NCBI GenBank assembly: GCA_027083345.1
Contig: JALWOZ010000010.1
Coordinates: forward strand, 7,301 to 71,300
Direction of reading: 5' to 3'
DNA length: 64,000 bases
From: Candidatus Kaiserbacteria bacterium
GTDB lineage: Bacteria; Patescibacteriota; Minisyncoccia; Phycocordibacterales; UBA2100
Of this stretch, positions 2 to 14,020 are shown piece after piece. Position 1 is the first letter of the stretch. Every line of letters begins with the position of its first letter. A program made the position numbers and the translations under genes. Under the pieces are notes generated by a model. It ran no database searches. It saw nothing but the letters and a program-made list of their open reading frames with translations, and was not told the origin of the DNA.

Positions 2-1456
2 GAAGAGCCCGAAGTAGCGAAAGAGCTTGAGGATCAATTTAACAAAGATGGTATTACCTTTATAGGCAATGCTTACATAAAAGAATTTACAAAAGATGGC
101 GAAGCTATTTTTGAAATAAAAAAAGAAGATAAAATTATAAATACAATTAAAATTCCTAATGACGCTGTTTTAATATCAATAGGTAGAATAGCAAATACTC
201 AGATAAACCTTGAGAAAGCTGGGGTAAAATATACAAAATATGGCATAACAACAAATAGGAAATATAGGACCAATATAAACCATATTTTTGCAATAGGCGA
301 TGTTACAGACAGGCTAAAATTTACTCATGTAGCAGATGATGCCGCCAGGAATGTAATAAAACAAATATTAATACCTTTACCTATTTTTACTAAAATAAGA
401 GTAGTACCTAAAGTTACTTACACCGATCCTGAACTGGCCCAAGTTGGTTTGTCCTATAAACAAGCGATAAAAGATTATGGAGAAAACTCAATAATAAAAA
501 TAGTAGTACCTTTTGCAAAGATAGTAGACAGATCCAGGATAGATGGTACAGGCGGAGTGCTAGTTATAATAGCTAAGCGGTTATCAGGTAGGATTCTAGG
601 AGGGCATATAGCACATGCACGCGGAGGAGATATGCTAGCCTTTTTAACTTTAGCTATTAAAAGTAGACAATCTATGTGGAAGTTAAATAATATGATATTC
701 CCTTACCCGAGTTACTCTCAAGTATTTAAAAAAGCATCGGACCAATTTTTAACAGAAACTATTAAAACTATTAAGGTAGACATATTAAACTTATTTAAAA
801 AACATTTTACTAAAATATCTGCTTTAATATTTTGGGGAATACTATTATATATATTTAACTCATATAAAGTGGCTCATGGTCTAGATACTAAAGAACTATC
901 CATAATGTTAGCCAGTTTTATCACTAGTACACTTTGGGGTCCCTTAATCTATATGCTATTTTATATATTTCGGCCACTTATACTCTTCCCCGCTGTATTG
1001 CTTACTACCCTGTCTGGGGTTATGTTTGGGTTTTGGGGAGGATTTATATTTACAATGATAGGAGAGAATCTCTCAGCCAGCTTTGTGTATTTAATAGGAC
1101 GTTTCTTTGGCAAAAATATACAATTTAAAGATACATTTATAGGGCCAATGGTTACTAAAATCTGCAACGAGACTTTTATATCTGTTTTACTAGCTCGTTT
1201 TTTGTTCTTCCCCTTTGATTTGACTAACTTAGCTTGTGGAGCCATGAAGGCCAGGTGGCGTAGTTACGCCCTAGCAACGTTCATAGGTATAATTCCAGGC
1301 ATGAGTACATTTATTGCTCTTGGAGCCAGTTTTGAGAATGTCTCTGACTTTGACTTATCTATGTTGCATATAAATAGTACGACCTTATTAGTCTCCATCA
1401 CTCTATTTGTTTTTACCTTAACATTAGCAAAAGCGTTACGTAAATATCATAAATAA
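2..1456 (+). CDS. FAD-dependent pyridine nucleotide-disulfide oxidoreductase (MerA/Lpd-like C-terminal region, 5'-truncated by window edge) fused to a C-terminal DedA/TVP38 (SNARE-associated) membrane domain
   Basis: Frame 2 stays open from the window start into the ATG-bounded ORF at 449. The upstream translation contains the AIGDV FAD motif (IFAIGDVTDRLKFTHVADDAARN) and a dimerisation-domain-like region (GGHIAHARGGDMLAF...IFPYPSY). Residues about 150-335 are polytopic membrane with DedA-like segments. There is no C-terminal CC pair as in true MerA. Confidence 0.55.
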   Translation, partial: EEPEVAKELEDQFNKDGITFIGNAYIKEFTKDGEAIFEIKKEDKIINTIKIPNDAVLISIGRIANTQINLEKAGVKYTKYGITTNRKYRTNINHIFAIGDVTDRLKFTHVADDAARNVIKQILIPLPIFTKIRVVPKVTYTDPELAQVGLSYKQAIKDYGENSIIKIVVPFAKIVDRSRIDGTGGVLVIIAKRLSGRILGGHIAHARGGDMLAFLTLAIKSRQSMWKLNNMIFPYPSYSQVFKKASDQFLTETIKTIKVDILNLFKKHFTKISALIFWGILLYIFNSYKVAHGLDTKELSIMLASFITSTLWGPLIYMLFYIFRPLILFPAVLLTTLSGVMFGFWGGFIFTMIGENLSASFVYLIGRFFGKNIQFKDTFIGPMVTKICNETFISVLLARFLFFPFDLTNLACGAMKARWRSYALATFIGIIPGMSTFIALGASFENVSDFDLSMLHINSTTLLVSITLFVFTLTLAKALRKYHK

Positions 1457-1462
1457 TAGAAA

Positions 1463-1915
1463 CTAAAGTACTTCAACATTCCTCTTTAGCCACATAAATA
1501 TAGCTAACGTAGCCAAACAAAAAGTAATGATGGCAGAGATGATGCAATAAAAGCAAAAAGCTTTAATTACAAAAGCTTGCAAGTATATAAAATATATAGA
1601 ATCTAAAGCTCCAAATATAGTCATTGCTAATACCACGTCTCTCAGTCTAGGTATACTCACTTTATATATAAGCAAAAGACTTATTATAAACATCACCATA
1701 TAAAACAACAACCCTAAATAAGCTAGTGGTACACCAAACATAACAGCATAAGGACTAGACTCAACAATGCCACAACCACTAAGTCCATTGCAAAACATCT
1801 TGTCTATATGCATATACCTCGTATAACTAAGATATATCGTATCTAATAAACCCAATAAACTAAAACCTAAAAATAAAGTATTTAGAGATGGTACTTGTAT
1901 TTTCTTAAAACTCAT
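1463..1915 (-). CDS. vitamin K epoxide reductase (VKOR) family protein (DsbB-analogue)
   Basis: 150 aa with 4-5 TM segments and a CFYC redox motif in the last TM. An N-terminal conserved Cys pair region (CNGLSGCG) is typical of bacterial VKOR. Confidence 0.65.
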   Translation of the reverse strand: MSFKKIQVPSLNTLFLGFSLLGLLDTIYLSYTRYMHIDKMFCNGLSGCGIVESSPYAVMFGVPLAYLGLLFYMVMFIISLLLIYKVSIPRLRDVVLAMTIFGALDSIYFIYLQAFVIKAFCFYCIISAIITFCLATLAIFMWLKRNVEVL

Positions 1916-1918
1916 ATT

Positions 1919-2698
1919 TTATTTTCTTAATTTATAACCTGTTCTAAATATTACACTTATAATCACCATAAGAACTCCTGCTAGTATAGATATAAGTAAC
2001 ATAGACAATGCAGGATGCACATCTGTTATTCCATAAAAAGACCAACGCAAGCCATTTATCATATATACTAAAGGGTTAAACAGAGCTATATGTTGCCAAA
2101 AACTTGGAAGCATCTTCAAAGAATAAAATATACCTCCTAAAAACGACATGGGAGTAATAACAAAAGAAGGCACTAATTGAAACTGCTCAAAAGTGTTGGC
2201 CCATAAACCTACTATAAATCCAAATAAGGCAAATATCATAGACACTATTATAGAGAAAGATAATGCCCATATGGGGTGTAGGATGTGTAAAGGAGTAAAA
2301 AATAATGCTACTATAAAAATAATAAATCCTATCATCACTGCGCGAGTTGTAGCAGACAATATATAGCCTAATGTAATCTCTACATATGATAAAGGAGCAG
2401 ACAACATCTCATATATCGTATTAGTAAATTTAGCAAAAAATATGCCAGAAGCTGCTGCTGAAAAGCTATTAATTAATAAAGCCATCATTATAAGTCCGGG
2501 AACTATAAACTGCATATAAGACACACCATTTATTCCGCTGATCCTATTACCTAATGCTGCCCCAAATACTACAAAATATAAAGTAGTCGTAAGTACGGGG
2601 AAAGCTATAGACTGAAATATTACTCTTTTGGTACGCGACATCTCTTTTATATATATAGTCCAGAGCCCAAGCCAATTGATGTTTTTAAAATTACTCAT
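1919..2698 (-). CDS. ABC-2 type transporter permease
   Basis: 259 aa with 6 predicted TMs. It overlaps the upstream ABC ATPase gene by 8 nt (translational coupling). Confidence 0.6.
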   Translation of the reverse strand: MSNFKNINWLGLWTIYIKEMSRTKRVIFQSIAFPVLTTTLYFVVFGAALGNRISGINGVSYMQFIVPGLIMMALLINSFSAAASGIFFAKFTNTIYEMLSAPLSYVEITLGYILSATTRAVMIGFIIFIVALFFTPLHILHPIWALSFSIIVSMIFALFGFIVGLWANTFEQFQLVPSFVITPMSFLGGIFYSLKMLPSFWQHIALFNPLVYMINGLRWSFYGITDVHPALSMLLISILAGVLMVIISVIFRTGYKLRK

Positions 2699-3425
2699 TT
2701 TTATCTTTTACTAAATTTACATAAATGTCTTCTAAACTTTTACCCTTATGCTCTGCAACTAGACTCTCTTTTTCTTTTATAAATTCTAATTTACCTTTGT
2801 TTATGAGGGCAACTCTATCAGAGAGTCTTTCAGCCTCCTCAAGATAGTGAGTGGTTAAGATTATCGTCATTCCTTCTTTATTTAGATCTTTAACTAAAGA
2901 TATTAACTCTCGCCTTAACTCTACGTCTACTCCGGCTGTTGGCTCGTCTAAAAACAAAACTTCTGGTTCACTGACTAGGGCACGAGCCAAAAGTACTCTC
3001 CTCTTCATACCGCCTGAGAGCTTGAATATCTTTTCGTCTTTCTTATTTAAGATAGATAACTTAGATAGTATCTCTTTATAAAGCTCTTCATCTTGTTTTT
3101 TACCAAAATAACCTCTAGTATATCTAAGTACATCTATAACAGTAGCAAAGTGTTCTAGAAATATCTCTTGTGGGACTAACCCTATTAATTGGCGAGAGTC
3201 TCTATAGTCTTTCTTAATATCGTAACCTCTAACGGTTACTGAGCCTTTAGTGGGTTCTACTAGACCACATATTGTATTTATAAGAGTAGTCTTACCGGCT
3301 CCATTAGGTCCTAATAGCGCAAGTATCTCCCCTTTATTTACTTGTAAAGTAACATTATCGAGAGCCATCAACTCTCGACGGGTGCCTTTATTATAAATCT
3401 TGGTTAAATTAGTAACTTTTATCAT
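2691..3425 (-). CDS. ABC transporter ATP-binding protein
   Basis: Walker A GPNGAGKTT, signature LSGGMKRR, Walker B LFLDEPTAGVD, H-loop TTHYLEE. Confidence 0.85.
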   Translation of the reverse strand: MIKVTNLTKIYNKGTRRELMALDNVTLQVNKGEILALLGPNGAGKTTLINTICGLVEPTKGSVTVRGYDIKKDYRDSRQLIGLVPQEIFLEHFATVIDVLRYTRGYFGKKQDEELYKEILSKLSILNKKDEKIFKLSGGMKRRVLLARALVSEPEVLFLDEPTAGVDVELRRELISLVKDLNKEGMTIILTTHYLEEAERLSDRVALINKGKLEFIKEKESLVAEHKGKSLEDIYVNLVKDKNE

Positions 3426-3432
3426 CCTACCT

Positions 3433-3954
3433 TTACATAAATAAACTATATATAAAATGCACTGTTGGGTCTATATTGGGACCGTAAACAATACTTGCTC
3501 CCAATGCTCCTGTTATGGTTACAAGCACTAAGCCTACAACCGCCAAAAACAAGCGCACATTTGACAACATAACAAAATCTGCCAATTTACGACCATATTT
3601 AAATAATGAGTCAATGCTAGAATGTACCTTAATTAGCCGCTTACTCCAACCTAGAGCATCTAATACTCTCAATGTATAACCACCGGCCAATAACCCGAAT
3701 ACTGCTACAGTAAGTTGTGCAAATGTCTCGTGAACCTCAACTATATCCCCCTTGTCTACCAAATGACTAGCTATTCCGCCTGTTATTAGAGTAGGTAAGG
3801 CACTCAATATACCTAATATTATAAATACAGATTTAGTGTGCTCTATGCCAGTTCTAAACTTTTGGTTTTTTATAAATAGGGTGATAAATTCAAAAAAGAC
3901 AAATAAAACAAACAGGGCTATGGGGAAGTGCACAAACAAAGGATGAATATTCAT
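3433..3954 (-). CDS. membrane protein, DUF2231-like
   Basis: N-terminal HPLFVHFPIAL motif and 4 TMs. Confidence 0.35.
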   Translation of the reverse strand: MNIHPLFVHFPIALFVLFVFFEFITLFIKNQKFRTGIEHTKSVFIILGILSALPTLITGGIASHLVDKGDIVEVHETFAQLTVAVFGLLAGGYTLRVLDALGWSKRLIKVHSSIDSLFKYGRKLADFVMLSNVRLFLAVVGLVLVTITGALGASIVYGPNIDPTVHFIYSLFM

Positions 3955-4041
3955 ATAGATTTTATTATATTTGATAATATATTAAACAATTGCCACTATA
4001 ATATCATATTACCAAATAAACACTAATGTAATCTTATTTTA

Positions 4042-4674
4042 TTATAGCTTAGGTTTATAAGTTTTAATAAAATACACTGCATACAAAAATACCGACACAC
4101 TAAACAATGACACGACTACTTGCGTCCAAATAGGTAATACCGAAGCATACGAAAACAAAAATGCAAATGGAGATATCCCTACTATAGTCGTCCATATAAA
4201 TGTCTTATACGATATGGACGAAAATAAGCCTAAAGCATAACTCATAATATCTACCGGCATAGCAGTACGTAATAAAATTATCACAAAATATAAATGAAGT
4301 TTAGAAGAGTGTACCTCCAGATCTTTAATCTTTTTGCATATATTTAATTGTTGCAATTTACCGTGCCCATATTCTCTAGCTAGATAAAAAGCTATTATAG
4401 AGCCAATAAACCAACCTGTTATAGAGTATATGGCAGTAATAAATGGCCCAAAAGAATTCGCTGCCAAAGGCACCAAAAAACCCGAGCCAAGAGGAGCTAC
4501 CACTATAGATAAAATAGTTATACCGATATAAGCTATTGGTGCAAACATACTAGCTTTAAGCATCAGATTCTTAAGGTCATCAGAGTATATCTGAGAGAAT
4601 TGAGCAAGAACTACAAAAACCACTATAGACAAAATTCCGAAGAATATATAATTTGTTAATTTAAATTTATCCAT
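4042..4674 (-). CDS. DedA/TVP38/TMEM64 family membrane protein
   Basis: Segment VVAPLGSGFLVPLAANSFGPFITAIYSITGWFIGSIIAFYLAREYG, typical of a DedA core. Confidence 0.55.
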   Translation of the reverse strand: MDKFKLTNYIFFGILSIVVFVVLAQFSQIYSDDLKNLMLKASMFAPIAYIGITILSIVVAPLGSGFLVPLAANSFGPFITAIYSITGWFIGSIIAFYLAREYGHGKLQQLNICKKIKDLEVHSSKLHLYFVIILLRTAMPVDIMSYALGLFSSISYKTFIWTTIVGISPFAFLFSYASVLPIWTQVVVSLFSVSVFLYAVYFIKTYKPKL

Positions 4675-5212
4675 TACATACTAAAGACTCATCCATCTTT
4701 TTAACTAAAGAATATATAGAATATAATAATAAAGCTATACCAATTAATCCTAATTCTTCTCCTCCTAAAGGTAAAAAACTTAGCAATGCTCCCGCTCCTA
4801 ATAAACTTAACAATGAGGTTACTACAAAACTACCGCAAGCAGCACAGCCTATACCCAAAAATCCCGCAACCAAACCTCCTATACCCGTACCGAAAATTGG
4901 AGTCATATTTTTGGTTAGTTTTTGTCGACGCCTAACATAAAACGCCAACAAAGTGATGTTAATAGCAAACAAAATGGCTATGGTTAAAGTATAAAAGGCT
5001 GAAAATAAAGTAAAGTTAGTAGTTATAGCTCCGTAAAATGAAGCTATAAATTTAATTTTCCCCAAAACGCTTAAAGAGTTACTAGAGGCGACTTTAAGCA
5101 TTAACTCTCTGTTGGGGAAGAGTAAAGAAACACTTATTATTATGCTAGCTATCATAAAAGCTAACAAAAAATATAGAGGCTTAATTAAAACTCTACCAAT
5201 GACTTTAATCAT
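4667..5212 (-). CDS. Gly-rich polytopic membrane protein with CAAC (CxxC) motif, function unknown
   Basis: GIGGLVAGFLGIGCAACGSFVV glycine-zipper TM with a Cys pair. It lies immediately upstream of the DsbA-like gene. The start was taken at the internal Met to avoid overlap with the dsbA-like stop. Confidence 0.3.
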   Translation of the reverse strand: MIKVIGRVLIKPLYFLLAFMIASIIISVSLLFPNRELMLKVASSNSLSVLGKIKFIASFYGAITTNFTLFSAFYTLTIAILFAINITLLAFYVRRRQKLTKNMTPIFGTGIGGLVAGFLGIGCAACGSFVVTSLLSLLGAGALLSFLPLGGEELGLIGIALLLYSIYSLVKKMDESLVCNG

Positions 5213-5213
5213 A

Positions 5214-5939
5214 TTAATTATTACGTGCAAAGTCTAGCAATTGCTTTATAGCCTCTTTAGGTTGAGACCCATTTAATGGCAATGTCTTACCTGACGCTGT
5301 TATAACCACTCCCCAAGGAGTACCTCTACCACCAGTAGCTATAGCATTGTCTATATCGGCCTGTACATGTTTATCCATCTCTCCGCTAGATACACATTTA
5401 TCAAAATCACTTTTATTTACACCAGCTTCAGCTACTAAAGGAGGTACTACTTTATCATAAATGGTCCTATCATTAGATAATGTATCTCTAAAGTATCCAT
5501 CAGTAAACTTCCAAAAAGCATTATTACCACCAAGCTTATTAACGCATTCTGAAGCTACAGCAACCTTACGAGCATTACGAGGGTGCAATGAATCTAATGG
5601 GAAATGCCTATATACCCACGCCACATCCTTCTCTTCTTTTATTATTTCATTCATTGTACCGTGATGTCGTTTACAAAACGGGCATTCAAAGTCAGAATAT
5701 TCAACTATCGTAACCTTTGGATTTGTAGCGCCTTTGGTATGATCTGACTTATCTACCGGTCTTAATTTATTTGTAGTATCAACTTGTTGGTCATCAACAC
5801 TGGGAGCCACTGCCGTATTCGCACCTCTACCACCAGAAAAAAATACCGCTAAAGCTATAAATGCCCCCGCTATAACAATGGCTATGGGCACCGCATAACT
5901 ATTTTTTGTTTGTAATTTTTGTTCTTTTTGATTTTCCAT
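5214..5939 (-). CDS. DsbA-family thiol:disulfide oxidoreductase, membrane-anchored
   Basis: N-terminal TM anchor, then a thioredoxin fold with CPFC active site (VTIVEYSDFECPFCKRHH). Confidence 0.7.
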   Translation of the reverse strand: MENQKEQKLQTKNSYAVPIAIVIAGAFIALAVFFSGGRGANTAVAPSVDDQQVDTTNKLRPVDKSDHTKGATNPKVTIVEYSDFECPFCKRHHGTMNEIIKEEKDVAWVYRHFPLDSLHPRNARKVAVASECVNKLGGNNAFWKFTDGYFRDTLSNDRTIYDKVVPPLVAEAGVNKSDFDKCVSSGEMDKHVQADIDNAIATGGRGTPWGVVITASGKTLPLNGSQPKEAIKQLLDFARNN

Positions 5940-6052
5940 ATTATTTTACTATTTCTTAAATTTATTAATCTTAATTATAATTTTAACATACTTATTAACA
6001 TATATATTATTAAAATCCTTAATAACTCCAACTAATACTCTTCATAATAATT

Positions 6053-6469
6053 CTATACACTGCTTATTGCCCTTACCAATCTCTCTTGTGCGTTTAAAGC
6101 AACCTCGTCTAAACTTGCATTACCAACAGTCCTCATCATATTTACCGGTAGAACAGTCGAGACTCTTACCTCTCCAGCATCTTCATAAACTATTACATTA
6201 CATGGTAAAAATAGACCAATCTCCTTCTCTGCCCGCAACGCCCTGTCTGCTAATACTGGGTTACAAGCACCCAAGATAACGTAGTTGTCATACTCGGCTC
6301 CAATCTTCTCTTGCATTGTTGCCTTAATATCAATCTCAACCAATACTCCAAAGCCTTCAGTAGATAGTGCTTCTTTTACTTTCTCTACAGCCGTATTAAA
6401 GTCTAAATCAACACTTTTAGTGTGAGAGTAATCTGCATTATTTACACACTCTTTATTTGTATAATTCAT
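6053..6469 (-). CDS. DUF302 domain protein
   Basis: 138 aa. The GFGVLVEIDIKATM...YVILGACNP signature is typical of DUF302. From memory, this family often sits next to heavy-metal ATPases. Confidence 0.55.
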   Translation of the reverse strand: MNYTNKECVNNADYSHTKSVDLDFNTAVEKVKEALSTEGFGVLVEIDIKATMQEKIGAEYDNYVILGACNPVLADRALRAEKEIGLFLPCNVIVYEDAGEVRVSTVLPVNMMRTVGNASLDEVALNAQERLVRAISSV

Positions 6470-6489
6470 AATGTTTTTAATAATTTTTA

Positions 6490-8466
6490 TTAATTTAAAT
6501 TAACCCTCTTTAATAACATTGCATTTGCTACAACTATTACGGTTGAAAGACTCATGATAAATGCTCCTATCTCCGGTCTTAGATAAAACCCAGCAAATGC
6601 AAACACCCCCGCTGCAGCTGGTATAGCTACAATATTATAACCAAGCGCCCATATAAGATTTTCAACCATCTTTTTGTATACTGCTTTTGAGAGTTTAATT
6701 AATCGCACAATATCAAGCGGATTACTCCTGGTTAGCACCACATCCCCTGCCTCAACTGCCACATCAGTACCGGCCCCAATGGCTACACCAACATCAGCTT
6801 GGGTAAGTGCTGGAGCGTCATTAACTCCGTCTCCCACCATAAGCACCTTACTACCATCCTCCTGCAACTCTTTTATATATTTATATTTATCCTCCGGTAA
6901 TACGTCTGCATAATATTTATCTATGCCAAGCTCCCCTGCCACAGCCTGTGCTACTTGCGTATTATCCCCTGTGAGCATTACTGGAGTTACCCCCAACTCT
7001 TTTAACTGCTTTATTGCTTCTTTAGCCTCAGGCTTTATTGTGTCTGCCAAGAGTATAGTGCCTAGTAAATTCTCGATACTTGCTACATACACAATAGTGC
7101 CCTGCACATCCTCTTTAGGTACTTTGATATTATACTCCTCCATTAACTTGGCATTACCAACCAAATACTCCTTACCTCTCAATGAGCCAGTTAATCCCTT
7201 GCCTGCTATGTTTTTAAAATTCTCTACATCTTTAATGTCAACACCATCGTCTTTAGCCTTATTTACAATAGTCTGAGCAATAACGTGAGAAGAGTATTGC
7301 TCAAAAGAAGCCGCTACACACAACAGCTCTGCATAACTTACTCCCTCTTGAGGAGTTATACTAGCAATGCCAAATACTCCCTCTGTGAGGGTACCTGTTT
7401 TATCAAATACTACTACATTTGCCTTTTTAACCACCTCAAGTTTAGAGAGATCTTTAACGAAAAAGCCGCTCTTGGTAGAGAGACTTGTGGCTATTGTTGT
7501 AACAGTTGGTATCGCTAAGCCCAATGCATGAGGACAAGCAATAACAAGTACCGTTATAGCCAGCGTAACACCAAAGACAAAAGGTTGCCCAAGCAAGAAT
7601 GTCCACACAACTAGAGTAAGGAGCGCCGTGATACCAGCAACAACCGTTAGTACACTCGCAGCTTTATCTGCGAGTTTTTGTGAGGTTGGCTTGGTGTTTT
7701 GTGCTTGCTCTATCAGTTGCTGTATCTGCCCCACTGTAGAGTCAGCACCTACACGAGTCACACGCATAGTAAAGGTAGTATCTACTACTATTGATCCTGA
7801 GACCAAACCATCACCCACACCTTTATTAACCGGCTTAGACTCACCGGATATTAAAGATTCGTCTATGTGCCCCTCGCCTTTGGCGATCTCACCGTCTGCC
7901 GGTACTCTCTCTCCTGGCTTTATTAATACTATATCTCCAACTTTCAACTCTGAGACTTCAATATCTTTGACCTCTCCAGAGGAGGTTTGTAAATGCGCAA
8001 TTGAGGGTAAGAGCTTAGCCACCTCTTGCAAAGCATTACCCGCTGCTGAGCTAGATTTTGCCTCTAAATAATGCCCGAAGAGTAGCACCCATATTAAAGT
8101 TGAGATCTCAAGATAAAACTCAATCCCTAGTGATGGTACAAATGTAGATACCACGGAGAAAGCGTATCCAGCAAGTACAGCCATAGAGACGAGCGTCATC
8201 ATGCCTGGCTTTTTCATCTCAAGCTCCATCTTTGCATGCTTAAAGAAAACCAGAGAAAAGTAAAATATCACCGTAGCAAGTACAAATGATATATATCTGC
8301 CATACTCAAATACTGGTAACCCTAAAGCATTGGCCACCACCTCATTTAATCCAACCAGTGGTATGAGTAAGAAGGTTACAATCCAAAATTTGTGCAAAAA
8401 TTCATCGGCAGAGCCATGCCCCATCCCAGGTGATCCATGCTGACTATGACAAGAATGTTCTTTCAT
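6490..8466 (-). CDS. copB: copper-translocating P1B-type ATPase (CopB-like, CPH motif, His-rich N-terminus)
   Basis: DKTGTLT, GDGVNDAPAL, TM6 motif IACPHALGLA (CPH = P1B-3 subtype), N-terminal MKEHSCHSQHGSPGMGHGS His-rich metal-binding stretch. Confidence 0.85.
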   Translation of the reverse strand: MKEHSCHSQHGSPGMGHGSADEFLHKFWIVTFLLIPLVGLNEVVANALGLPVFEYGRYISFVLATVIFYFSLVFFKHAKMELEMKKPGMMTLVSMAVLAGYAFSVVSTFVPSLGIEFYLEISTLIWVLLFGHYLEAKSSSAAGNALQEVAKLLPSIAHLQTSSGEVKDIEVSELKVGDIVLIKPGERVPADGEIAKGEGHIDESLISGESKPVNKGVGDGLVSGSIVVDTTFTMRVTRVGADSTVGQIQQLIEQAQNTKPTSQKLADKAASVLTVVAGITALLTLVVWTFLLGQPFVFGVTLAITVLVIACPHALGLAIPTVTTIATSLSTKSGFFVKDLSKLEVVKKANVVVFDKTGTLTEGVFGIASITPQEGVSYAELLCVAASFEQYSSHVIAQTIVNKAKDDGVDIKDVENFKNIAGKGLTGSLRGKEYLVGNAKLMEEYNIKVPKEDVQGTIVYVASIENLLGTILLADTIKPEAKEAIKQLKELGVTPVMLTGDNTQVAQAVAGELGIDKYYADVLPEDKYKYIKELQEDGSKVLMVGDGVNDAPALTQADVGVAIGAGTDVAVEAGDVVLTRSNPLDIVRLIKLSKAVYKKMVENLIWALGYNIVAIPAAAGVFAFAGFYLRPEIGAFIMSLSTVIVVANAMLLKRVNLN

Positions 8467-8468
8467 AA

Positions 8469-8918
8469 TTATTTAATCTTATTTTGAGTAGCAGATGTAT
8501 AATACAAATTGATAACATCCTCATGTTGCATTGAATAGTCTCCAAGCTCTGTACTCTCCTTACCATTAACAGTCATCTTCTCAAATTCACCAAAATCGCT
8601 CATCATATCCTTACCCCAAATTTTAAAGAATTCCTTCAATTTAACTTGATTTTTAGTTACACGACCTCCAAACTCCATATGTATTAACCCCTTATTACTA
8701 TCATCGTGAGTATGTATCGGATTGTGTACAGCTCCTATACCTATATTTGCTGGTATCTCCTGCTCCTCTCCATCTACAAATATATGCAGCTCTGGATGCC
8801 AATGTATGCCACGAGTAGTCACGACATTTGGATCACTATTTTGTAATTTTGCTGACCATGCAAACAAGCCAAATATTGCAATAATTGCTACGATTATCCA
8901 TATTGTTGTTTTTAACAT
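8469..8918 (-). CDS. N-terminally anchored His-rich protein, putative extracytoplasmic metal-binding protein
   Basis: Single N-terminal TM, then a His-dense region HWHPELH...HNPIHTHDD. The gene sits between copB and the MerT-like gene in the same operon. Confidence 0.3.
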   Translation of the reverse strand: MLKTTIWIIVAIIAIFGLFAWSAKLQNSDPNVVTTRGIHWHPELHIFVDGEEQEIPANIGIGAVHNPIHTHDDSNKGLIHMEFGGRVTKNQVKLKEFFKIWGKDMMSDFGEFEKMTVNGKESTELGDYSMQHEDVINLYYTSATQNKIK

Positions 8919-8940
8919 AATTTTAAATTTATTATATTAA

Positions 8941-9177
8941 TTAGTTTTCTTTATCCGCCTCACTTTCTTGTGTAGACACTTTACCTTTATTACATGTGCA
9001 TCTCGTCTTGTACACATAATAACCAGCGCCTACCACTAATACCCAAAAGATTAAGTGTATAAAAAAACCAAAACCTCCCATATACATATAATGCCCCTGA
9101 CCCCAAGAGTCTCCCATCATATCTCCACCATAGTCATTATCTTGCTGCCCTCCATGTGCTTCTGCTATATTTAACAT
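8941..9177 (-). CDS. small Met/Gly/His-rich membrane protein
   Basis: 78 aa, HYMYMGGFGFF followed by one TM and a CTC motif. Operon position suggests metal handling. Confidence 0.25.
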   Translation of the reverse strand: MLNIAEAHGGQQDNDYGGDMMGDSWGQGHYMYMGGFGFFIHLIFWVLVVGAGYYVYKTRCTCNKGKVSTQESEADKEN

Positions 9178-9210
9178 AATTTTATTTTATTAATTTTTTA
9201 ATTTTCTATA

Positions 9211-9660
9211 TTATTTTACATTTGGTACAGGACACTTGTCTTCGGCATATTCACAAAAGACACAACAATTTTTACTGTCTTTTGGTGTGCTTATTACCTC
9301 ACCGCATCCATTACATTTATAGAATGGTTGACAATTGTTGGTGGGGATAGTCTCAACTTGCACATGTCCACACTTTGGACAAGTTATTTTGGTTTTTTTA
9401 TCTTTAATGTTGTCCTCTCGCTCCTTCTGTAACTCACAACTTGCACATTTACCTGTTTTATATTTATAAAATGAATAAATAGTTACCACCACCATAACTG
9501 CAAGAGCTGGTAAAAGGACATAATCTAAATATGGCGTAAATACACTCAAACCAATTGCCGCCAGCAATATTACTAGAACAGGAGTAAAGCAACAAAGGGC
9601 TATAGCGATAGTGCCGCCTATTACTCCGTATAATTTTCTTTTAGCTTTTTTCTTATTCAT
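9211..9660 (-). CDS. MerT/MerF-like metal transporter (vicinal Cys in TM1) fused to C-terminal Cys-rich zinc-ribbon-like domain
   Basis: TM1 ALCCFTPVLVILLAAIGLS matches the MerT CC-x-x-P-L-V-L-I-A-L-G signature. The C-terminal 70 aa carry CPKC..CNGC..CCVFC..C. Confidence 0.45.
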   Translation of the reverse strand: MNKKKAKRKLYGVIGGTIAIALCCFTPVLVILLAAIGLSVFTPYLDYVLLPALAVMVVVTIYSFYKYKTGKCASCELQKEREDNIKDKKTKITCPKCGHVQVETIPTNNCQPFYKCNGCGEVISTPKDSKNCCVFCEYAEDKCPVPNVK

Positions 9661-9663
9661 ATG

Positions 9664-9945
9664 CTACCTTTTTAATTTATAAACTTTCAACACTTCATTT
9701 ATCGCTCTGTTTTCTTCACTCTTCCTCCCGCTTTGCATCTGATCTTTAACACATGTATGCAAATGTTGCTCCAATATTGTGTCTTCAAAAGAGCGTAACG
9801 CATTACGCACTGCACTAGTTTGGGTTATTAAATCTATACAATAGCGACCATCGGTAACCATCTTTTGCAATCCTCGCACCTGCCCTTCAATCTTCTTAAG
9901 ACGTATACTGTACTTCTTTTTGTCTGCTTTTGAATAATCCATCAC
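9664..9945 (-). CDS. csoR: CsoR/RcnR family metal-sensing transcriptional repressor
   Basis: 93 aa, RLKKIEGQVRGLQKMV...RYCIDLITQTSAVRNAL...H..C: the C-H-C copper-ligand pattern of CsoR. Confidence 0.8.
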   Translation of the reverse strand: MMDYSKADKKKYSIRLKKIEGQVRGLQKMVTDGRYCIDLITQTSAVRNALRSFEDTILEQHLHTCVKDQMQSGRKSEENRAINEVLKVYKLKR

Positions 9946-9951
9946 AAATCA

Positions 9952-9972
9952 GTATACCCCCTAAGGGTATAT
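9952..9972. promoter_or_regulatory. candidate CsoR operator: inverted repeat GTATACCC-N5-GGGTATAC immediately upstream of csoR
   Basis: Perfect 8-bp arms. From memory, CsoR operators are GC-core palindromes of the form TACCC...GGGTA. A direct repeat AATCAGTATAC occurs at about 9947 and about 9995. Confidence 0.45.
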
Positions 9973-9985
9973 ACTGCAAATGTAC

Positions 9986-10648
9986 TTATGCACAATCAGT
10001 ATACACATCTACATTATCTTTATTGGATAAAGCACATATTGGCTCAATATAGGACTCAGAAGTTTTAGACAAAGAACTTAGTCGAGCACATTTACCCTCT
10101 CCCGTAGTATATAAAACTATATGGTCAACACTCTCTAGCAAAAACCTAAGAGTAATGGTGATACGCTCTTTAAACTGATTATTGGTATTCTCATGTATAT
10201 ATCCCGTAACCCAATTATCAGTCTCTATGAACAATCTTCTAAATAGATCTTCATTTTCTGGCATAGGCAAAATCCCTGCAATATGTCCATCTGTACCCAT
10301 GCCAAGTAATGTGATTATCTTGCCTTCTGGATGTTGCCTTCGCCATCTTTTATATACCTCCTCCTCTATAGAAATTAAATTAACATTATGCTTTTTTATA
10401 TTCTTAAACCACTTTGTTTGTACCAGTCGCCGTGCATTACTATCTATCTCTCCTACATTGAGTCTTTCATCCACCAACCCTATACTCACTCTCTCATCAA
10501 TATTCTCAACGGCAATATACTCAAGTACACTCATTGCCGAGCCGCCTGACAAAAGTAATAAAACAGGAATACTTTTATATTCTGCCAAGAGTTCACCAAT
10601 ACGCTCTCCAGCGTCTTTACCAATTTGAGTACTTGTATGTAAATGCAT
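9986..10648 (-). CDS. pgl: 6-phosphogluconolactonase
   Basis: GMGTDGHIAG motif, diagnostic of Pgl/NagB-fold lactonases. Adjacent to gnd and zwf. Confidence 0.7.
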   Translation of the reverse strand: MHLHTSTQIGKDAGERIGELLAEYKSIPVLLLLSGGSAMSVLEYIAVENIDERVSIGLVDERLNVGEIDSNARRLVQTKWFKNIKKHNVNLISIEEEVYKRWRRQHPEGKIITLLGMGTDGHIAGILPMPENEDLFRRLFIETDNWVTGYIHENTNNQFKERITITLRFLLESVDHIVLYTTGEGKCARLSSLSKTSESYIEPICALSNKDNVDVYTDCA

Positions 10649-10655
10649 AATTTAT

Positions 10656-11588
10656 TTAATCAACTATTACTTTCAATTCGTACCCAAATACTTTACTAAC
10701 TTCTTGCATATAATTCTTTATATTTTGTTTAAATAATGGCGCACGAACTTTCTGTATTTTACCTATAACATAATAACTCACCGCCATCATAGTTGCATAA
10801 TTTGCATTCTCTGGGAGTGGTATGTGTAAGCGATTACCCTCTTTACCCCAAGCAGTATTACGCTCGGCTTCTGTACCAAAACTAATAAAGAGCTCGTCTC
10901 CAGGTACTACTGTCGTGGCATGAGCAACATACTCGGCAGTCTCTACATCTCGTGCAACTGTGCGTCCAAAGAGCTCAATAAACTTAACTTGCAACATACG
11001 GATAATCCCAGAAAAGCGCGATGGTACAATAAGATAATAGCGATCAAAGAGTGAGAAGTCTGATAATGTCAATTTATCTATCACCTCAATAATATGATTG
11101 TATATTTTCTGCGCATCCTCTTTTGTTGCGCTAAGAATCATAGCCATATAGGTACTGGTATTATATGTATAAGGCTCTCGGTTTTTAGGGTAAGAGTATA
11201 CTATATCTGCTGTCATTGCGGCAGTTGAGTCTGGGCTATTAGTCAAGAGTATGACCTGCTTGCCTAAATCCTTTGCTTTTTGTGCGATTATTGGTGCATG
11301 TTTTTCTCCACTCGCAGAGATAAGTACAACCCCATCTATATTATCTATATTCTTTAATTTCTCTTCATAGGTACTCTCACTGGCAAATATAGCATCCAAC
11401 TTCTCAAAAATAATCCTACCGGTAGCCTCTGCATTACCAGAGCCAACAATTAATGGGCGTTTATACATACTCACATCAATTTGTGGTAACTCTAATTGCA
11501 TAAAGAGCTCGAGAGCTCCCAAAACCACAGTATCTAAATCTGGGAGATTGTCGAGAGTAAAACTTTTTAATATTTTTTGATTTTTCAT
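10656..11588 (-). CDS. hypothetical protein within zwf-gnd-pgl operon (possible OpcA-like G6PD assembly factor or SIS-like protein)
   Basis: Start taken at the internal Met (MKNQKILK) so it does not overlap gnd. No confident motif. Position between gnd and pgl mirrors opcA in actinobacterial zwf operons. Confidence 0.3.
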   Translation of the reverse strand: MKNQKILKSFTLDNLPDLDTVVLGALELFMQLELPQIDVSMYKRPLIVGSGNAEATGRIIFEKLDAIFASESTYEEKLKNIDNIDGVVLISASGEKHAPIIAQKAKDLGKQVILLTNSPDSTAAMTADIVYSYPKNREPYTYNTSTYMAMILSATKEDAQKIYNHIIEVIDKLTLSDFSLFDRYYLIVPSRFSGIIRMLQVKFIELFGRTVARDVETAEYVAHATTVVPGDELFISFGTEAERNTAWGKEGNRLHIPLPENANYATMMAVSYYVIGKIQKVRAPLFKQNIKNYMQEVSKVFGYELKVIVD

Positions 11589-11595
11589 ATATCTC

Positions 11596-12525
11596 TTATG
11601 AGCTAACTTTTGTATTACCTGCATGTCCTCCAAACATATTGCGCATCGTTTGTATAAGTTTACCCGCATAGCTCGGATCTTTCTGACTCTCAATCCTAGC
11701 ATCAAGCGCATGTTGAATAACTCCTGCATCTATACCCATATTTCCAGCCACCTTAAGGGTCCACTCTCCCTCACCAGAGGCACCGGCAGATCCACTCACC
11801 TCTGCAAGATCTTCGCCATAAGTTTGGAATCCTTTTTGTAACCATCCCACTAATCTACTTGTTATTACACTTTGATGTTGGTAGATGTCTGCCACATCTA
11901 GCATCTTTAGGTCGAAGTCTGAATGCTTCATGATATTAAAACCTTCTGCTATTGCTTCCATCATACCGTATTCGATACCATTGTGCACCATCTTTACAAA
12001 GTGCCCGGCACCACTCCTACCCATATATTTATAAGCATCTTTAGCAGATATATCTTTAAACAAATCCTCTAAATAGTTATATGTATCTTTTTCTCCTCCA
12101 ACCATTACGCAAACTCCATTCTTTGCACCTTCAGGACCACCGGAGACTCCAGCGTCAATATATTTTATTCCCTTTTTACTCATCTTTTTGCTTCTCTCTA
12201 TAGATAACTCATATAGTGAATTGCCTCCGTCTATCACAATATCTCCAAAACTTAGTAAGAGCCCTAAATCATCAAGTACTCCGTCTACATAATTATGTGG
12301 CACCATAAGCCAAATAACCCTCTCCCCGGGGTCTCCACTATTGTTTACTAGATCCTTAAGATCTTTATATCCCACACCACCAACCTCTATAAACCTATCC
12401 ACAGCATCATCGTTCACATCAGTAGCAACCACCTTCCACCCTTTAGTTAAGAGCCTGTTAGCCATATTAAAGCCCATTTTACCCAACCCAATATAACCAA
12501 TCTTCTTACTTATTATTTTTGTCAT
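11596..12525 (-). CDS. gnd: 6-phosphogluconate dehydrogenase (decarboxylating), short YqeC/GndA-like form
   Basis: N-terminal Rossmann IGYIGLGKMGFNMANRL. 309 aa short-form 6PGDH. Confidence 0.75.
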   Translation of the reverse strand: MTKIISKKIGYIGLGKMGFNMANRLLTKGWKVVATDVNDDAVDRFIEVGGVGYKDLKDLVNNSGDPGERVIWLMVPHNYVDGVLDDLGLLLSFGDIVIDGGNSLYELSIERSKKMSKKGIKYIDAGVSGGPEGAKNGVCVMVGGEKDTYNYLEDLFKDISAKDAYKYMGRSGAGHFVKMVHNGIEYGMMEAIAEGFNIMKHSDFDLKMLDVADIYQHQSVITSRLVGWLQKGFQTYGEDLAEVSGSAGASGEGEWTLKVAGNMGIDAGVIQHALDARIESQKDPSYAGKLIQTMRNMFGGHAGNTKVSS

Positions 12526-12543
12526 TATTATATTCTTATTTTA

Positions 12544-13944
12544 TTAAAGATTCTTATTAAACTCTTGCAACAAAGGCATAGTACCCTTTTTATATGACAC
12601 CAAAGGCACACTCTCCCAATTGTTAATTATAGGAGTTATAAACTTCCATGCCGCACACACCTCTTGAGCTGTTGGGAATATTGTACGATTACCTAAAATA
12701 GCATCTCTTAAAACTTGCTCATATGCATCAGGCAATCCTTTACTATCATCATATACATATTTTAACTCTTGAGATTCTAATACATATTCTAAGCCGGGCT
12801 TTTTAACCCAAAATCGTATAGATATTTGTTTTTGAGGTTGTAGAGAGAAAGTTAGCCTATTACCATGCTCATGACCTTCTCCATTAACACCACAAACACA
12901 AGGGGTACGCCTTTTAAATTGTACTTGTATCTCTATATTGTCTTCTGGCATACCTTTACCCCCTTCTATCAAAAACGAAACCCCTTGCCAAACCGGTGAG
13001 TCCACAAAAGCCCGTATAGCAAAATATGTCTCAGTATCTGAATTGTCGCTTATACCAGCAGTATCTCTATAACTGTCATATTGAGCTCTAAATGTATTCT
13101 TAGCTACTTCTTCTTTACTAGAGTACACCCTTAGAGAATTTAATATACCCAAACGCATAGAAGAGATTTTCTCAGCATTTAGCTCCCCGGGGCTGTCCAT
13201 TGCCAACAAGGTTAACAATTGCAATAGGTGATTCTGCCCGACATCTCTTAGGGCTCCAACTGTCTCATAAAAAGCTCCTCTATTCTCAACATCTCCACTT
13301 TCATACATCTTTATATGAACAGACTCGACATGGTTATTATCCCAAGTATGCTCGAATAATGCATTTGAAAATCTAAAAGCTATCAGATTCTCTATAGTAT
13401 CTTTCGCCAGGTAATGATCTACCCTAAATATTTGAGTCTCTTTTAAATATTGATTAATTATACTATTGAGCTCCTCTGCACTCTCACTATCATAACCAAA
13501 TGGCTTCTCTACTAAGATCCTACTCCAATTAGTGGGACCCTCTATAGCAACTTCACTATTACCTAAATTTTTAAAAACTTCTTTATATAAAGTGGGAGGT
13601 ACTGCTAGGTGAAAGAGTCTATTACCTCTAACATCAACTCCTAACTCATGTTCCATATCCAAAATAGCAGCACCAAGCTTGTGATACGCTTCTTCATCTA
13701 ATAGATCCATTTGTAGATAAGAAAGTATATCCAAAAATTCTTCAGACACTCCGTTAACTTTCCCTGCTACATAATCCTTAAAAGTTGTTGTACTCATTTG
13801 TTCTCTAGACACTCCTAAAATCCTTACATCTTTAGGCAAATTTCTACGTTTATATAGATCAGATAAAGAAGGTAACAGTTTACGCCAAGCTAAATCTCCC
13901 ATGGCCCCAAAAAGTATTATTGTAGTAGGTGTGTTAAATGTCAT
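12544..13944 (-). CDS. zwf: glucose-6-phosphate 1-dehydrogenase
   Basis: ILFGAMGDLAWRKLLPSL NADP-binding motif. RVDHYLAKD active-site motif. An alternative start is 13962. Confidence 0.85.
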   Translation of the reverse strand: MTFNTPTTIILFGAMGDLAWRKLLPSLSDLYKRRNLPKDVRILGVSREQMSTTTFKDYVAGKVNGVSEEFLDILSYLQMDLLDEEAYHKLGAAILDMEHELGVDVRGNRLFHLAVPPTLYKEVFKNLGNSEVAIEGPTNWSRILVEKPFGYDSESAEELNSIINQYLKETQIFRVDHYLAKDTIENLIAFRFSNALFEHTWDNNHVESVHIKMYESGDVENRGAFYETVGALRDVGQNHLLQLLTLLAMDSPGELNAEKISSMRLGILNSLRVYSSKEEVAKNTFRAQYDSYRDTAGISDNSDTETYFAIRAFVDSPVWQGVSFLIEGGKGMPEDNIEIQVQFKRRTPCVCGVNGEGHEHGNRLTFSLQPQKQISIRFWVKKPGLEYVLESQELKYVYDDSKGLPDAYEQVLRDAILGNRTIFPTAQEVCAAWKFITPIINNWESVPLVSYKKGTMPLLQEFNKNL

Positions 13945-14020
13945 ATATGAGTAACTGTTCATATATAATACTACACCTATACTGCTTACACAAAAATACA
14001 ATGTGCATAATCATTACGCA

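Follow-up and report, generated by a model that had tools for sequence, protein, structure and literature searches.

A rare MerF-GDCCVxC fusion protein encoded in a CsoR/CopB copper operon of a Candidatus Kaiserbacteria bacterium

A 64-kb stretch of contig JALWOZ010000010.1 from a Candidatus Kaiserbacteria bacterium (hereafter the window, i.e., the whole 64,000 nucleotides that were analyzed) contains a six-gene copper locus, headed by the gene of the Cu(I)-sensing repressor CsoR, whose second gene encodes a fusion of the mercury transporter MerF with a nine-cysteine domain of the GDCCVxC family. The CsoR and CopB core of this locus is ordinary, and both MerF and GDCCVxC have been catalogued as families. 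The novelty lies in the rare fusion of the two and in finding this fusion under a copper sensor instead of a mercury sensor, in an uncultured lineage with small genomes. The explanation that we rank first, and to which we give slightly less than an even chance, is that the fusion works as an import-and-capture relay for thiophilic metal ions.

The six genes are tightly packed on the minus strand, from 9985 down to 6053, in the order csoR, the gene of the 149-residue fusion, a 78-residue peptide, a His-rich protein of 149 residues, copB, and a DUF302 gene. All six open reading frames (ORFs) were found as listed and ordered in the first-pass annotation of this DNA, which had delimited the region as 8469-9985; this span holds the first four genes and the operator, while CopB and DUF302 fall outside it. 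The start codon of the fusion lies 3 nt past the csoR stop, and the intergenic gaps, in gene order, are 3, 33, 22, 2, and 20 nt, which are short enough for the six genes to fit a single transcript. The identity of the parts and the layout of the operon from csoR to DUF302 are highly probable. The features of the locus are the following:

9951-9980, minus strand: promoter-like site TTTGCA-18 nt-TATACT, the sole promoter-like site upstream of csoR
9953-9971: predicted CsoR operator, a G/C-tract inverted repeat, TATACCCTTAGGGGGTATA, within the promoter spacer and overlapping the -10 element
9664-9945, minus strand: csoR, 93 amino acids (aa), Cu(I)-sensing CsoR-family repressor (PF02583, 94.8 bits)
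9211-9660, minus strand: MerF-GDCCVxC fusion gene, 149 aa, made of MerF, a linker, and the nine-Cys domain (hidden Markov models, HMMs, and an AlphaFold2 model, AF2)
9454-9630, minus strand: MerF module, residues 11-69 of the fusion (NF033565, PF11431, PDB 2M67)
9226-9390, minus strand: GDCCVxC domain, residues 91-145 of the fusion (NF041374, 60.3 bits)
8941-9177, minus strand: 78-aa single-pass membrane peptide, with a Met/His-rich N-terminus and C-x-C after the transmembrane (TM) helix
8469-8918, minus strand: 149-aa N-anchored His-rich protein of an uncharacterized family (alignment of homologs)
6490-8466, minus strand: CopB, P1B-3-type copper ATPase, 658 aa (motifs and TIGR01511)
6053-6469, minus strand: DUF302 protein, 138 aa (PF03625, 85.2 bits against a cut-off of 23), as the first-pass annotation had it

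The N-terminal half of the fusion is recognized by both MerF models, with 79.8 bits for NF033565 on residues 11-69 (cut-off 50) and 61.1 bits for PF11431 (cut-off 24.3), and the solved MerF structure (PDB 2M67) aligns to residues 11-73 with an E value of 1.9e-15. The first TM helix (TM1) had been described as being of the MerT/MerF type. The string on which this was based, ALCCFTPVLVILLAAIG, is indeed present in the protein, and the MerF part of the description stands, whereas MerT is absent among the Pfam matches; the MerTP model (NF033556) stays at 21.7 bits, far below its cut-off of 180. The vicinal cysteines C23 and C24 lie within the LCCFTP motif of TM1. Across 41 aligned homologs, C23, C24, F25, T26, P27, D46, and P51 are invariant, and the CCxxP motif occurs in 116 of 117 homologs, indicating that the CC pair is conserved in orthologs. 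MerF is expected to have two membrane spans (PMC3466566, PMC5500634), and the AF2 model of the fusion shows a TM hairpin with helices at residues 4-36 and 42-68 (pLDDT 82-93). The second Cys pair, which follows TM2, is C72-A-S-C75, i.e., CxxC, in the window protein and CC in two other fusions (P0002 and P0003). Among 116 homologs this position carries CC in 29, CxxC in 15, a single Cys in 34, and none in 38. This variability agrees with the mutagenesis of MerF, where only the first Cys pair was found to be essential for transport (PMC5500634). The fusion follows the positive-inside rule, with a charge of +7 at the N-terminus and of +3 past TM2. Given this charge distribution and the published topology of MerF, in which both Cys pairs reportedly face the cytoplasm (PMC5500634), the tail of the fusion is placed in the cytoplasm.

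The tail, for which nine cysteines had been noted, proved to be a conserved domain of a curated family. Residues 91-145 match NF041374, named "GDCCVxC domain-containing (seleno)protein", above its cut-off of 40, and an HMM built from 85 stand-alone GDCCVxC members gives 81.3 bits. Eleven cysteines follow TM2, nine of which belong to the conserved domain (C94, C97, C110, C116, C119, C132, C133, C136, and C143). In an alignment of 69 sequences eight of these never vary, and the remaining one, C132, shows a conservation of 90% or more. The eponymous "GD" is replaced by "KN" in the window tail (NCCVFC; NCCVFCEY), which falls in a variant subclass defined by (K/E)NCCVxCE(Y/F) and a two-residue insertion. 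This subclass accounts for 15 of the 150 best representatives of the domain, and all MerF fusions are found inside it. The AF2 model was built from an alignment of fusions and GDCCVxC proteins only; a joint MAFFT alignment that also included MerFs mis-aligned MerF onto the tail and was discarded. In the model, a linker helix is followed by the tail, with pLDDT above 90 and four short strands. Judged from the topology of the model, C94/C97 and C116/C119 would sit at two hairpin turns in the fashion of a zinc ribbon, and C110, C132, C133, C136, and C143 would be left over for a second site. A Foldseek search of the tail against the PDB returned only weak zinc-ribbon resemblances (best E value of 0.4), and no solved GDCCVxC homolog was found by PDB sequence or Foldseek searches.

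To place the domain among known proteins, an exhaustive profile search (E value of 1e-3 or lower) was used in place of a word-indexed search, which with the tail alone had given one protein. The profile library represents 1.84 billion sequences, with proteins clustered at 50% identity, and 1,467 representative clusters with GDCCVxC were retrieved. Most members are free-standing proteins of 60-130 aa with the pattern ITCPxCGH...MPTDACQFFYxCxGC...GDCCVFCSYG..CPP. Fusions to MerF are represented by three of the best 150 representatives, with MerF preceding the domain in P0125 and P0129 and the reverse order in P0130. A word-indexed search of a database of 5.8 billion sequences returned two close full-length relatives of the fusion. 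Four independent sequences with MerF followed by GDCCVxC, among them P0002, P0003, and P0125, share 54-63% identity with the window protein and differ in their linkers, while P0129 is a more distant fusion of the same order. A scan of the contigs of GTDB species representatives with an alignment of three fusions found, at that sensitivity, no relative of the fusion. The domain is also fused to a MerT-like N-terminus (P0197), to a membrane module with a CPLC motif in both orders (P0126 and P0142), to an HMA domain (P0238), and to glutaredoxin-like domains (P0152 and P0179). P0268 is likewise among the fusions to other modules, and this set of partners is tied to thiol or soft-metal chemistry. 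The genomic contexts of P0126, P0127, and P0129 were uninformative. Within the subclass of the window tail, a free GDCCVxC protein (P0139) from hydrothermal-vent metagenome-assembled genomes is encoded directly upstream of an S-adenosylmethionine-dependent methyltransferase (positions 928-1837 of L101, and also in L102), an adjacency that hints at a link to metalloid or thiol methylation.

The domain is also found in 353 plasmid records. In four of the seven plasmid loci that were read, a MerR-type regulator, merT, and merP or an HMA gene are followed by the GDCCVxC gene, and no merA is present in the flanks read of these four loci. The coordinates of the four modules are:

L008, 4709-5204
L010, 4375-5207
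L106, 3227-4204
L107, 3321-4207

As for the other three loci, merT overlaps the GDCCVxC gene in L009, L109 has a regulator and a small ORF annotated as "mercuric reductase" without an annotated merT, and L108 is interrupted by an insertion sequence. The version of this module in Tn5563, which is carried on clinical KPC/VIM plasmids, has been called a "defective mer locus", with the GDCCVxC ORF unmentioned (PMC4785139). A literature search found no paper on the GDCCVxC domain, the only matches being to papillomavirus, and nothing relevant that joins MerF with CsoR or with Patescibacteria.

The regulator of the window locus is a CsoR of the Cu(I)-sensing type. It exceeds the PF02583 cut-off of 22.8, the Cu(I) ligand set C36/H61/C65 can be read in its sequence (the x-C-H-C fingerprint is present), and its best PDB matches are the CsoR proteins of Geobacillus (4M1P) and Streptomyces (4ADZ), whose RYCID and H-x3-C motifs line up with its own. 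The palindrome that had been pointed out at csoR is present and lies over the promoter-like site. The CsoR box inside it, TACCCTTAGGGGGTA (9955-9969), is the single exact, zero-mismatch match to the pattern TACCCNNNGGGGGTA in the 64 kb, and the -35 element, the spacer with the box, and the -10 element are kept upstream of csoR in three related loci (L001, L005, and L011). For a member of the CsoR family, repression by promoter occlusion and its relief by Cu(I) would be the expected behavior. The csoR promoter overlaps the 3' end of pgl, given that the pgl stop is only 40 nt from the csoR start. Genes of the oxidative pentose-phosphate pathway (G6PD, 6PGDH, a 357-aa unknown protein, and 6PGL) occupy 9986-14001 on the minus strand, directly upstream of csoR, and the same synteny is seen upstream of csoR in L001.

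The linkage of the fusion, or of its domain, to CsoR recurs in four different layouts, of which the window is one. In L001, downstream of the same G6PD/6PGDH/6PGL genes as in the window, csoR is followed by two small ORFs, a fusion that is 63% identical to that of the window, and an HMA gene. In L002, L003, and L004 a CsoR-family gene stands before the gene of a free GDCCVxC protein with 70% identity to the window tail. In L017 a fusion of reverse order is encoded roughly 1 kb upstream of csoR and of genes for a rhodanese and a multicopper oxidase. The CsoR-like protein of the second of these layouts (L002, 1986-2479, and also L003 and L004) lacks the H-x3-C copper ligands and has C5, C13, and C15 at its N-terminus, and an ABC ATPase gene comes after the free GDCCVxC protein. 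From its sequence, this protein may be a differently tuned sensor paired with GDCCVxC.

A mer operon is recognized by a MerR or ArsR regulator, MerA, and usually MerP in the cluster, and the window locus has CsoR as its regulator. Searches of the 64 kb by tblastn with plasmid queries found no MerR, MerP, MerT, or MerA gene, the sole match being one of MerA, with 26% identity, to a flavoprotein at the window start; no HMA gene was found in the window either. This flavoprotein had been suggested as a MerA-like partner of the transporter, a suggestion that does not survive closer comparison. In the ORF (2-1456, plus strand), a VTT/DedA membrane domain follows the C-terminal half of a pyridine-nucleotide disulfide oxidoreductase in the same chain. 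The protein scores higher with generic FAD-oxidoreductase (164 bits) and lipoamide-dehydrogenase (163 bits) models than with that of MerA (126 bits, cut-off 454), and it has the VTT domain where real MerA ends in LSCCAG. This ranking of the HMMs and the absent C-terminal CCAG rule the ORF out as a MerA partner, and it is also on the other strand, about 8 kb away. It remains an unusual membrane-tethered flavoprotein, the N-terminus of which, including the redox CxxxxC region, is off the window.

The backbone into which the fusion gene is set is a recurrent one. The combination of csoR, the His-rich protein, and a P1B ATPase, with DUF302 and DsbA in some loci, is an ordinary copper island of Patescibacteria and DPANN archaea. 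Homologs of the His-rich protein come almost all from these two groups (Kaiserbacteria, Parcubacteria, Paceibacteria, and others in the case of Patescibacteria). Among 46 loci whose sequence extends over at least 12 kb, the neighbors of the His-rich gene include a P1B ATPase in 33, DsbA in 24, the 187-aa membrane protein described below in 20, CsoR in 19, and a multicopper oxidase in 16. The first-pass annotation had called the pairing of such a transporter with a copper exporter under CsoR unusual, and it is rare indeed: MerF and GDCCVxC genes are missing from all 80 related Patescibacteria/DPANN copper-island loci from GTDB, and from the three closest syntenic contigs (L005-L007) as well. 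In these three, where the His-rich protein is 87% identical to that of the window, the order is csoR, a 79-aa peptide, a 148-aa protein, and copB, and the fusion is missing. After csoR, L005-L007 have an AT-rich intergenic sequence that the window has downstream of its fusion gene. Given that this sequence is preserved past the fusion, a clean gene-sized insertion or deletion of the fusion is indicated. On this comparison of sequences, the fusion gene is an accessory, gene-sized insert in a conserved island. A recent foreign origin is not supported by composition, given that the GC content of the fusion gene (0.356) and that of its third codon positions (GC3, 0.273) match those of the neighboring genes.

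How these parts may work together can be proposed as follows. The fusion would be transcribed with csoR from a promoter that CsoR occludes at the operator, and given this co-transcription its synthesis would be switched on once CsoR has bound Cu(I) or, possibly, some other thiophilic ion. In TM1, C23/C24 would take up a thiophilic ion, be it Hg(II) and/or Cu(I)/Ag(I), and hand it to C72/C75 at the inner face of the membrane, from where it would be caught by the tethered nine-Cys domain. Such a protein would condense the plasmid merT-merP-GDCCVxC module into a single polypeptide, with the domain in the place that normally belongs to MerA. Copper would be handled by CopB, and mercury or silver would be sequestered or passed to an unknown partner. 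That the tail acts as a cytoplasmic acceptor had been suggested at the outset, and it has indirect support in the merT-merP neighbors of the domain, its soft-metal fusion partners, and the logic of gene fusion (the Rosetta-stone argument), by which the fusion to MerF suggests that GDCCVxC works together with importers of this kind.

Several points weigh against this relay. The metal binding, the specificity, and the direction of transfer of the GDCCVxC domain are all deduced from sequence. Import of a toxic metal under a copper-stress regulator brings no obvious benefit unless a reductase or a fitting exporter is at hand, and MerA, MerR, MerP, and HMA are absent in the 64 kb. The second MerF pair is CxxC in the fusion and is dispensable in many homologs. 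Three other members of the same subclass have unrelated neighbors, and the family name "(seleno)protein" hints at redox chemistry rather than plain binding.

An explanation that we rank second and consider unlikely is that the fusion is a membrane-tethered cytoplasmic chaperone or buffer that imports nothing. The nine-Cys domain would pick up Cu(I) in the cytoplasm and pass it on to CopB, in the role of the missing CopZ, and the MerF hairpin would be mainly an anchor that presents thiolates at the inner leaflet. The location of the gene under a Cu(I) sensor and beside a Cu exporter is what would be expected of such a protein, CopB is without an HMA domain, and the window has no HMA or CopZ gene. 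An HMA protein encoded directly after the fusion in L001, the fusion of GDCCVxC to HMA in P0238, and the exposure of both MerF Cys pairs to the cytoplasm (PMC5500634) are likewise in line with it. Nonetheless, the closest relatives have the same CopB operon but lack the fusion, which means that CopB has no need of it; MerF alone is a proven Hg(II) importer (PMC5500634); and canonical GDCCVxC genes are found beside importers (MerT/MerP), not exporters.

That the domain is no metal sink at all, and acts instead as a thiol/selenol redox module or as a metal-dependent signaling partner of CsoR-family regulators, is ranked third and appears quite improbable. The NCBI name "(seleno)protein" implies selenocysteine in the place of a Cys in some members. 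Such a replacement usually marks a redox-active site. The fusions to glutaredoxin-like domains, the direct pairing of a ligand-less CsoR-like protein with a free GDCCVxC protein in L002-L004, and the richness of the island in thiol-redox genes (DsbA, VKOR, and the flavoprotein disulfide reductase) could be read in the same way, whereas the zinc-ribbon-like fold with two CxxC knuckles that look structural, the lack of a cofactor-binding motif, and the fact that the strongest and commonest association of the domain is with Hg(II) uptake genes speak against such a role. The least probable of the four explanations is that the fusion gene is hitch-hiking cargo, a mobile mercury-related remnant caught between csoR and the next gene with no part in the copper response. 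Its presence varies among the closest relatives with clean gene-sized boundaries, it is found in none of the 80 related islands, and the domain is abundant on transposons and plasmids, all as expected of cargo. A remnant would, however, hardly be expected to match its neighbors in GC and GC3, to start 3 nt after the csoR stop, to be linked to the CsoR family in four layouts, and to keep its functional residues all intact at 59-63% identity across metagenomes, and there is no transposase nearby.

CopB carries the motifs ACPHALG (CPH), GYNIVAIP, and MSLST, and its His-rich N-terminus, MKEHSCHSQHGSPGMGHGS, can be read in the translation. This is the P1B-3 signature in full, i.e., CPH in TM6, GYN(X)4P in TM7, MSxST in TM8, and a His-rich N-terminus (PMC5552934), and bears out the type first assigned to this ATPase. 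TIGR01511 gives 561.6 bits (cut-off 397), the best PDB matches are CopA and CopB, and a Pfam scan found no HMA domain in the protein. The DUF302 gene occurs at the same place downstream of the ATPase in L011. The 78-aa peptide has no Pfam or NCBIfam match, and its orthologs sit between csoR and the His-rich gene in L005-L007. The His-rich 149-aa protein has no Pfam, NCBIfam, or PDB sequence match. H39, H41, H69, H71, and H80 are invariant in its family, and its AF2 model (pLDDT 89.7) gives non-significant fold matches, with a weak beta-grasp-like resemblance only. From its sequence it is probably an extracytoplasmic copper-binding protein.

Downstream of DUF302, judging from gene content, the segment 4042-5939 (minus strand) is a probable continuation of the copper island, with the same gene set and order in L011, where csoR and the genes up to the ATPase are followed by DUF302, DsbA, the membrane protein, and further on VTT and VKOR. 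Beyond it, 1463-3954 on the same strand encodes a DUF2231 membrane protein, an ABC-2 exporter pair, and VKOR; VTT and VKOR are at the island end in L011 too. The features are:

5214-5939, minus strand: DsbA-like thioredoxin, probable island continuation
4667-5230, minus strand: 187-aa membrane protein with a GCAAC motif, probable island continuation
4042-4674, minus strand: VTT/DedA protein, probable island continuation
2691-3425, minus strand: ABC-2 exporter ATPase
1919-2698, minus strand: ABC-2 exporter permease
1463-1915, minus strand: VKOR

The gene of the 187-aa protein overlaps the stop of the DsbA-like gene by 17 nt, and the protein may serve DsbA as a thiol-oxidoreductase partner or else be another conduit for soft metals. 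Its GIGCAACG motif resembles TM1 of MerC by eye; no HMM supports kinship with MerC, and a BLAST comparison gave only a weak local match to the CPLC module of P0142 (E value of 0.009). The island of L005 is larger (4012-10940) and has, past copB, genes for a 507-aa unknown protein, DsbD, thioredoxin, and a rhodanese-cupredoxin fusion, and further on for a ferric-reductase-like membrane protein with its NAD-binding partner, DUF302, and a multicopper oxidase.

For GDCCVxC, an unstudied domain that is covered by a curated model but by no literature and is common among resistance plasmids, the fusion serves as Rosetta-stone evidence and as a lead to its function. It is conceivable, if doubtful, that GDCCVxC is the end-station of a widespread MerA-independent soft-metal pathway, in which an importer (MerT, MerP, or MerF) is followed by a nine-Cys/seleno-Cys acceptor. 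If this were true, hundreds of plasmid and transposon "defective mer loci" of the Tn5563 type would be complete, functional four-gene systems, and Patescibacteria from metal-rich habitats would have fused the pair and rewired it from MerR to CsoR, giving a copper-, silver-, or mercury-induced device for uptake and sequestration. Should the domain be a working partner of Hg(II)-type importers, the "defective" mer annotations would need to be re-read and there would be a second, reductase-free route for thiophilic metals. The window also helps to define a lineage-specific Patescibacteria/DPANN copper island with at least two conserved uncharacterized proteins, the His-rich ectoprotein and the GCAAC membrane protein.

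When compared with known systems, the locus resembles CsoR-regulated copper-efflux operons in having a CsoR with C-H-C ligands and a P1B copper ATPase downstream. In csoR-copZA of B. subtilis the operator presumably has the form TACCC-N3-GGGGGTA over the promoter, like the window box. Unlike that operon, the window has an ATPase of the CPH/His-rich CopB type and no CopZ, and adds the His-rich ectoprotein, the Met/His peptide, DUF302, and the MerF-GDCCVxC fusion. With MerF (PF11431/NF033565; PDB 2M67 and 2H3O) the fusion shares the two-helix hairpin, LCCFTP in TM1, and YLDYVLLPAL in TM2. It differs from MerF in the extra 65-residue nine-Cys domain, in that the Cys pair which follows TM2 is CxxC and not CC, and in being encoded in a CsoR/CopB copper operon of a Patescibacteria-like host rather than in a MerR/MerA mer operon. 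The tail has the CPxC...C...CxxC...CCVxC...C arrangement of NF041374 proteins, such as the ORF after merP in Tn5563-type merR-merT-merP modules, and like these plasmid members it is partnered with an importer of the Hg(II) type. Unlike them, it is covalently fused to that importer, has CsoR and not MerR as the regulator, and is chromosomal in an uncultured lineage. Finally, the joining of successive soft-metal thiol-relay stations in one polypeptide is also seen in the MerTP fusion (NF033556) and in NmerA-MerA, where the partners are MerT with MerP and HMA with the reductase, while here they are MerF and GDCCVxC.

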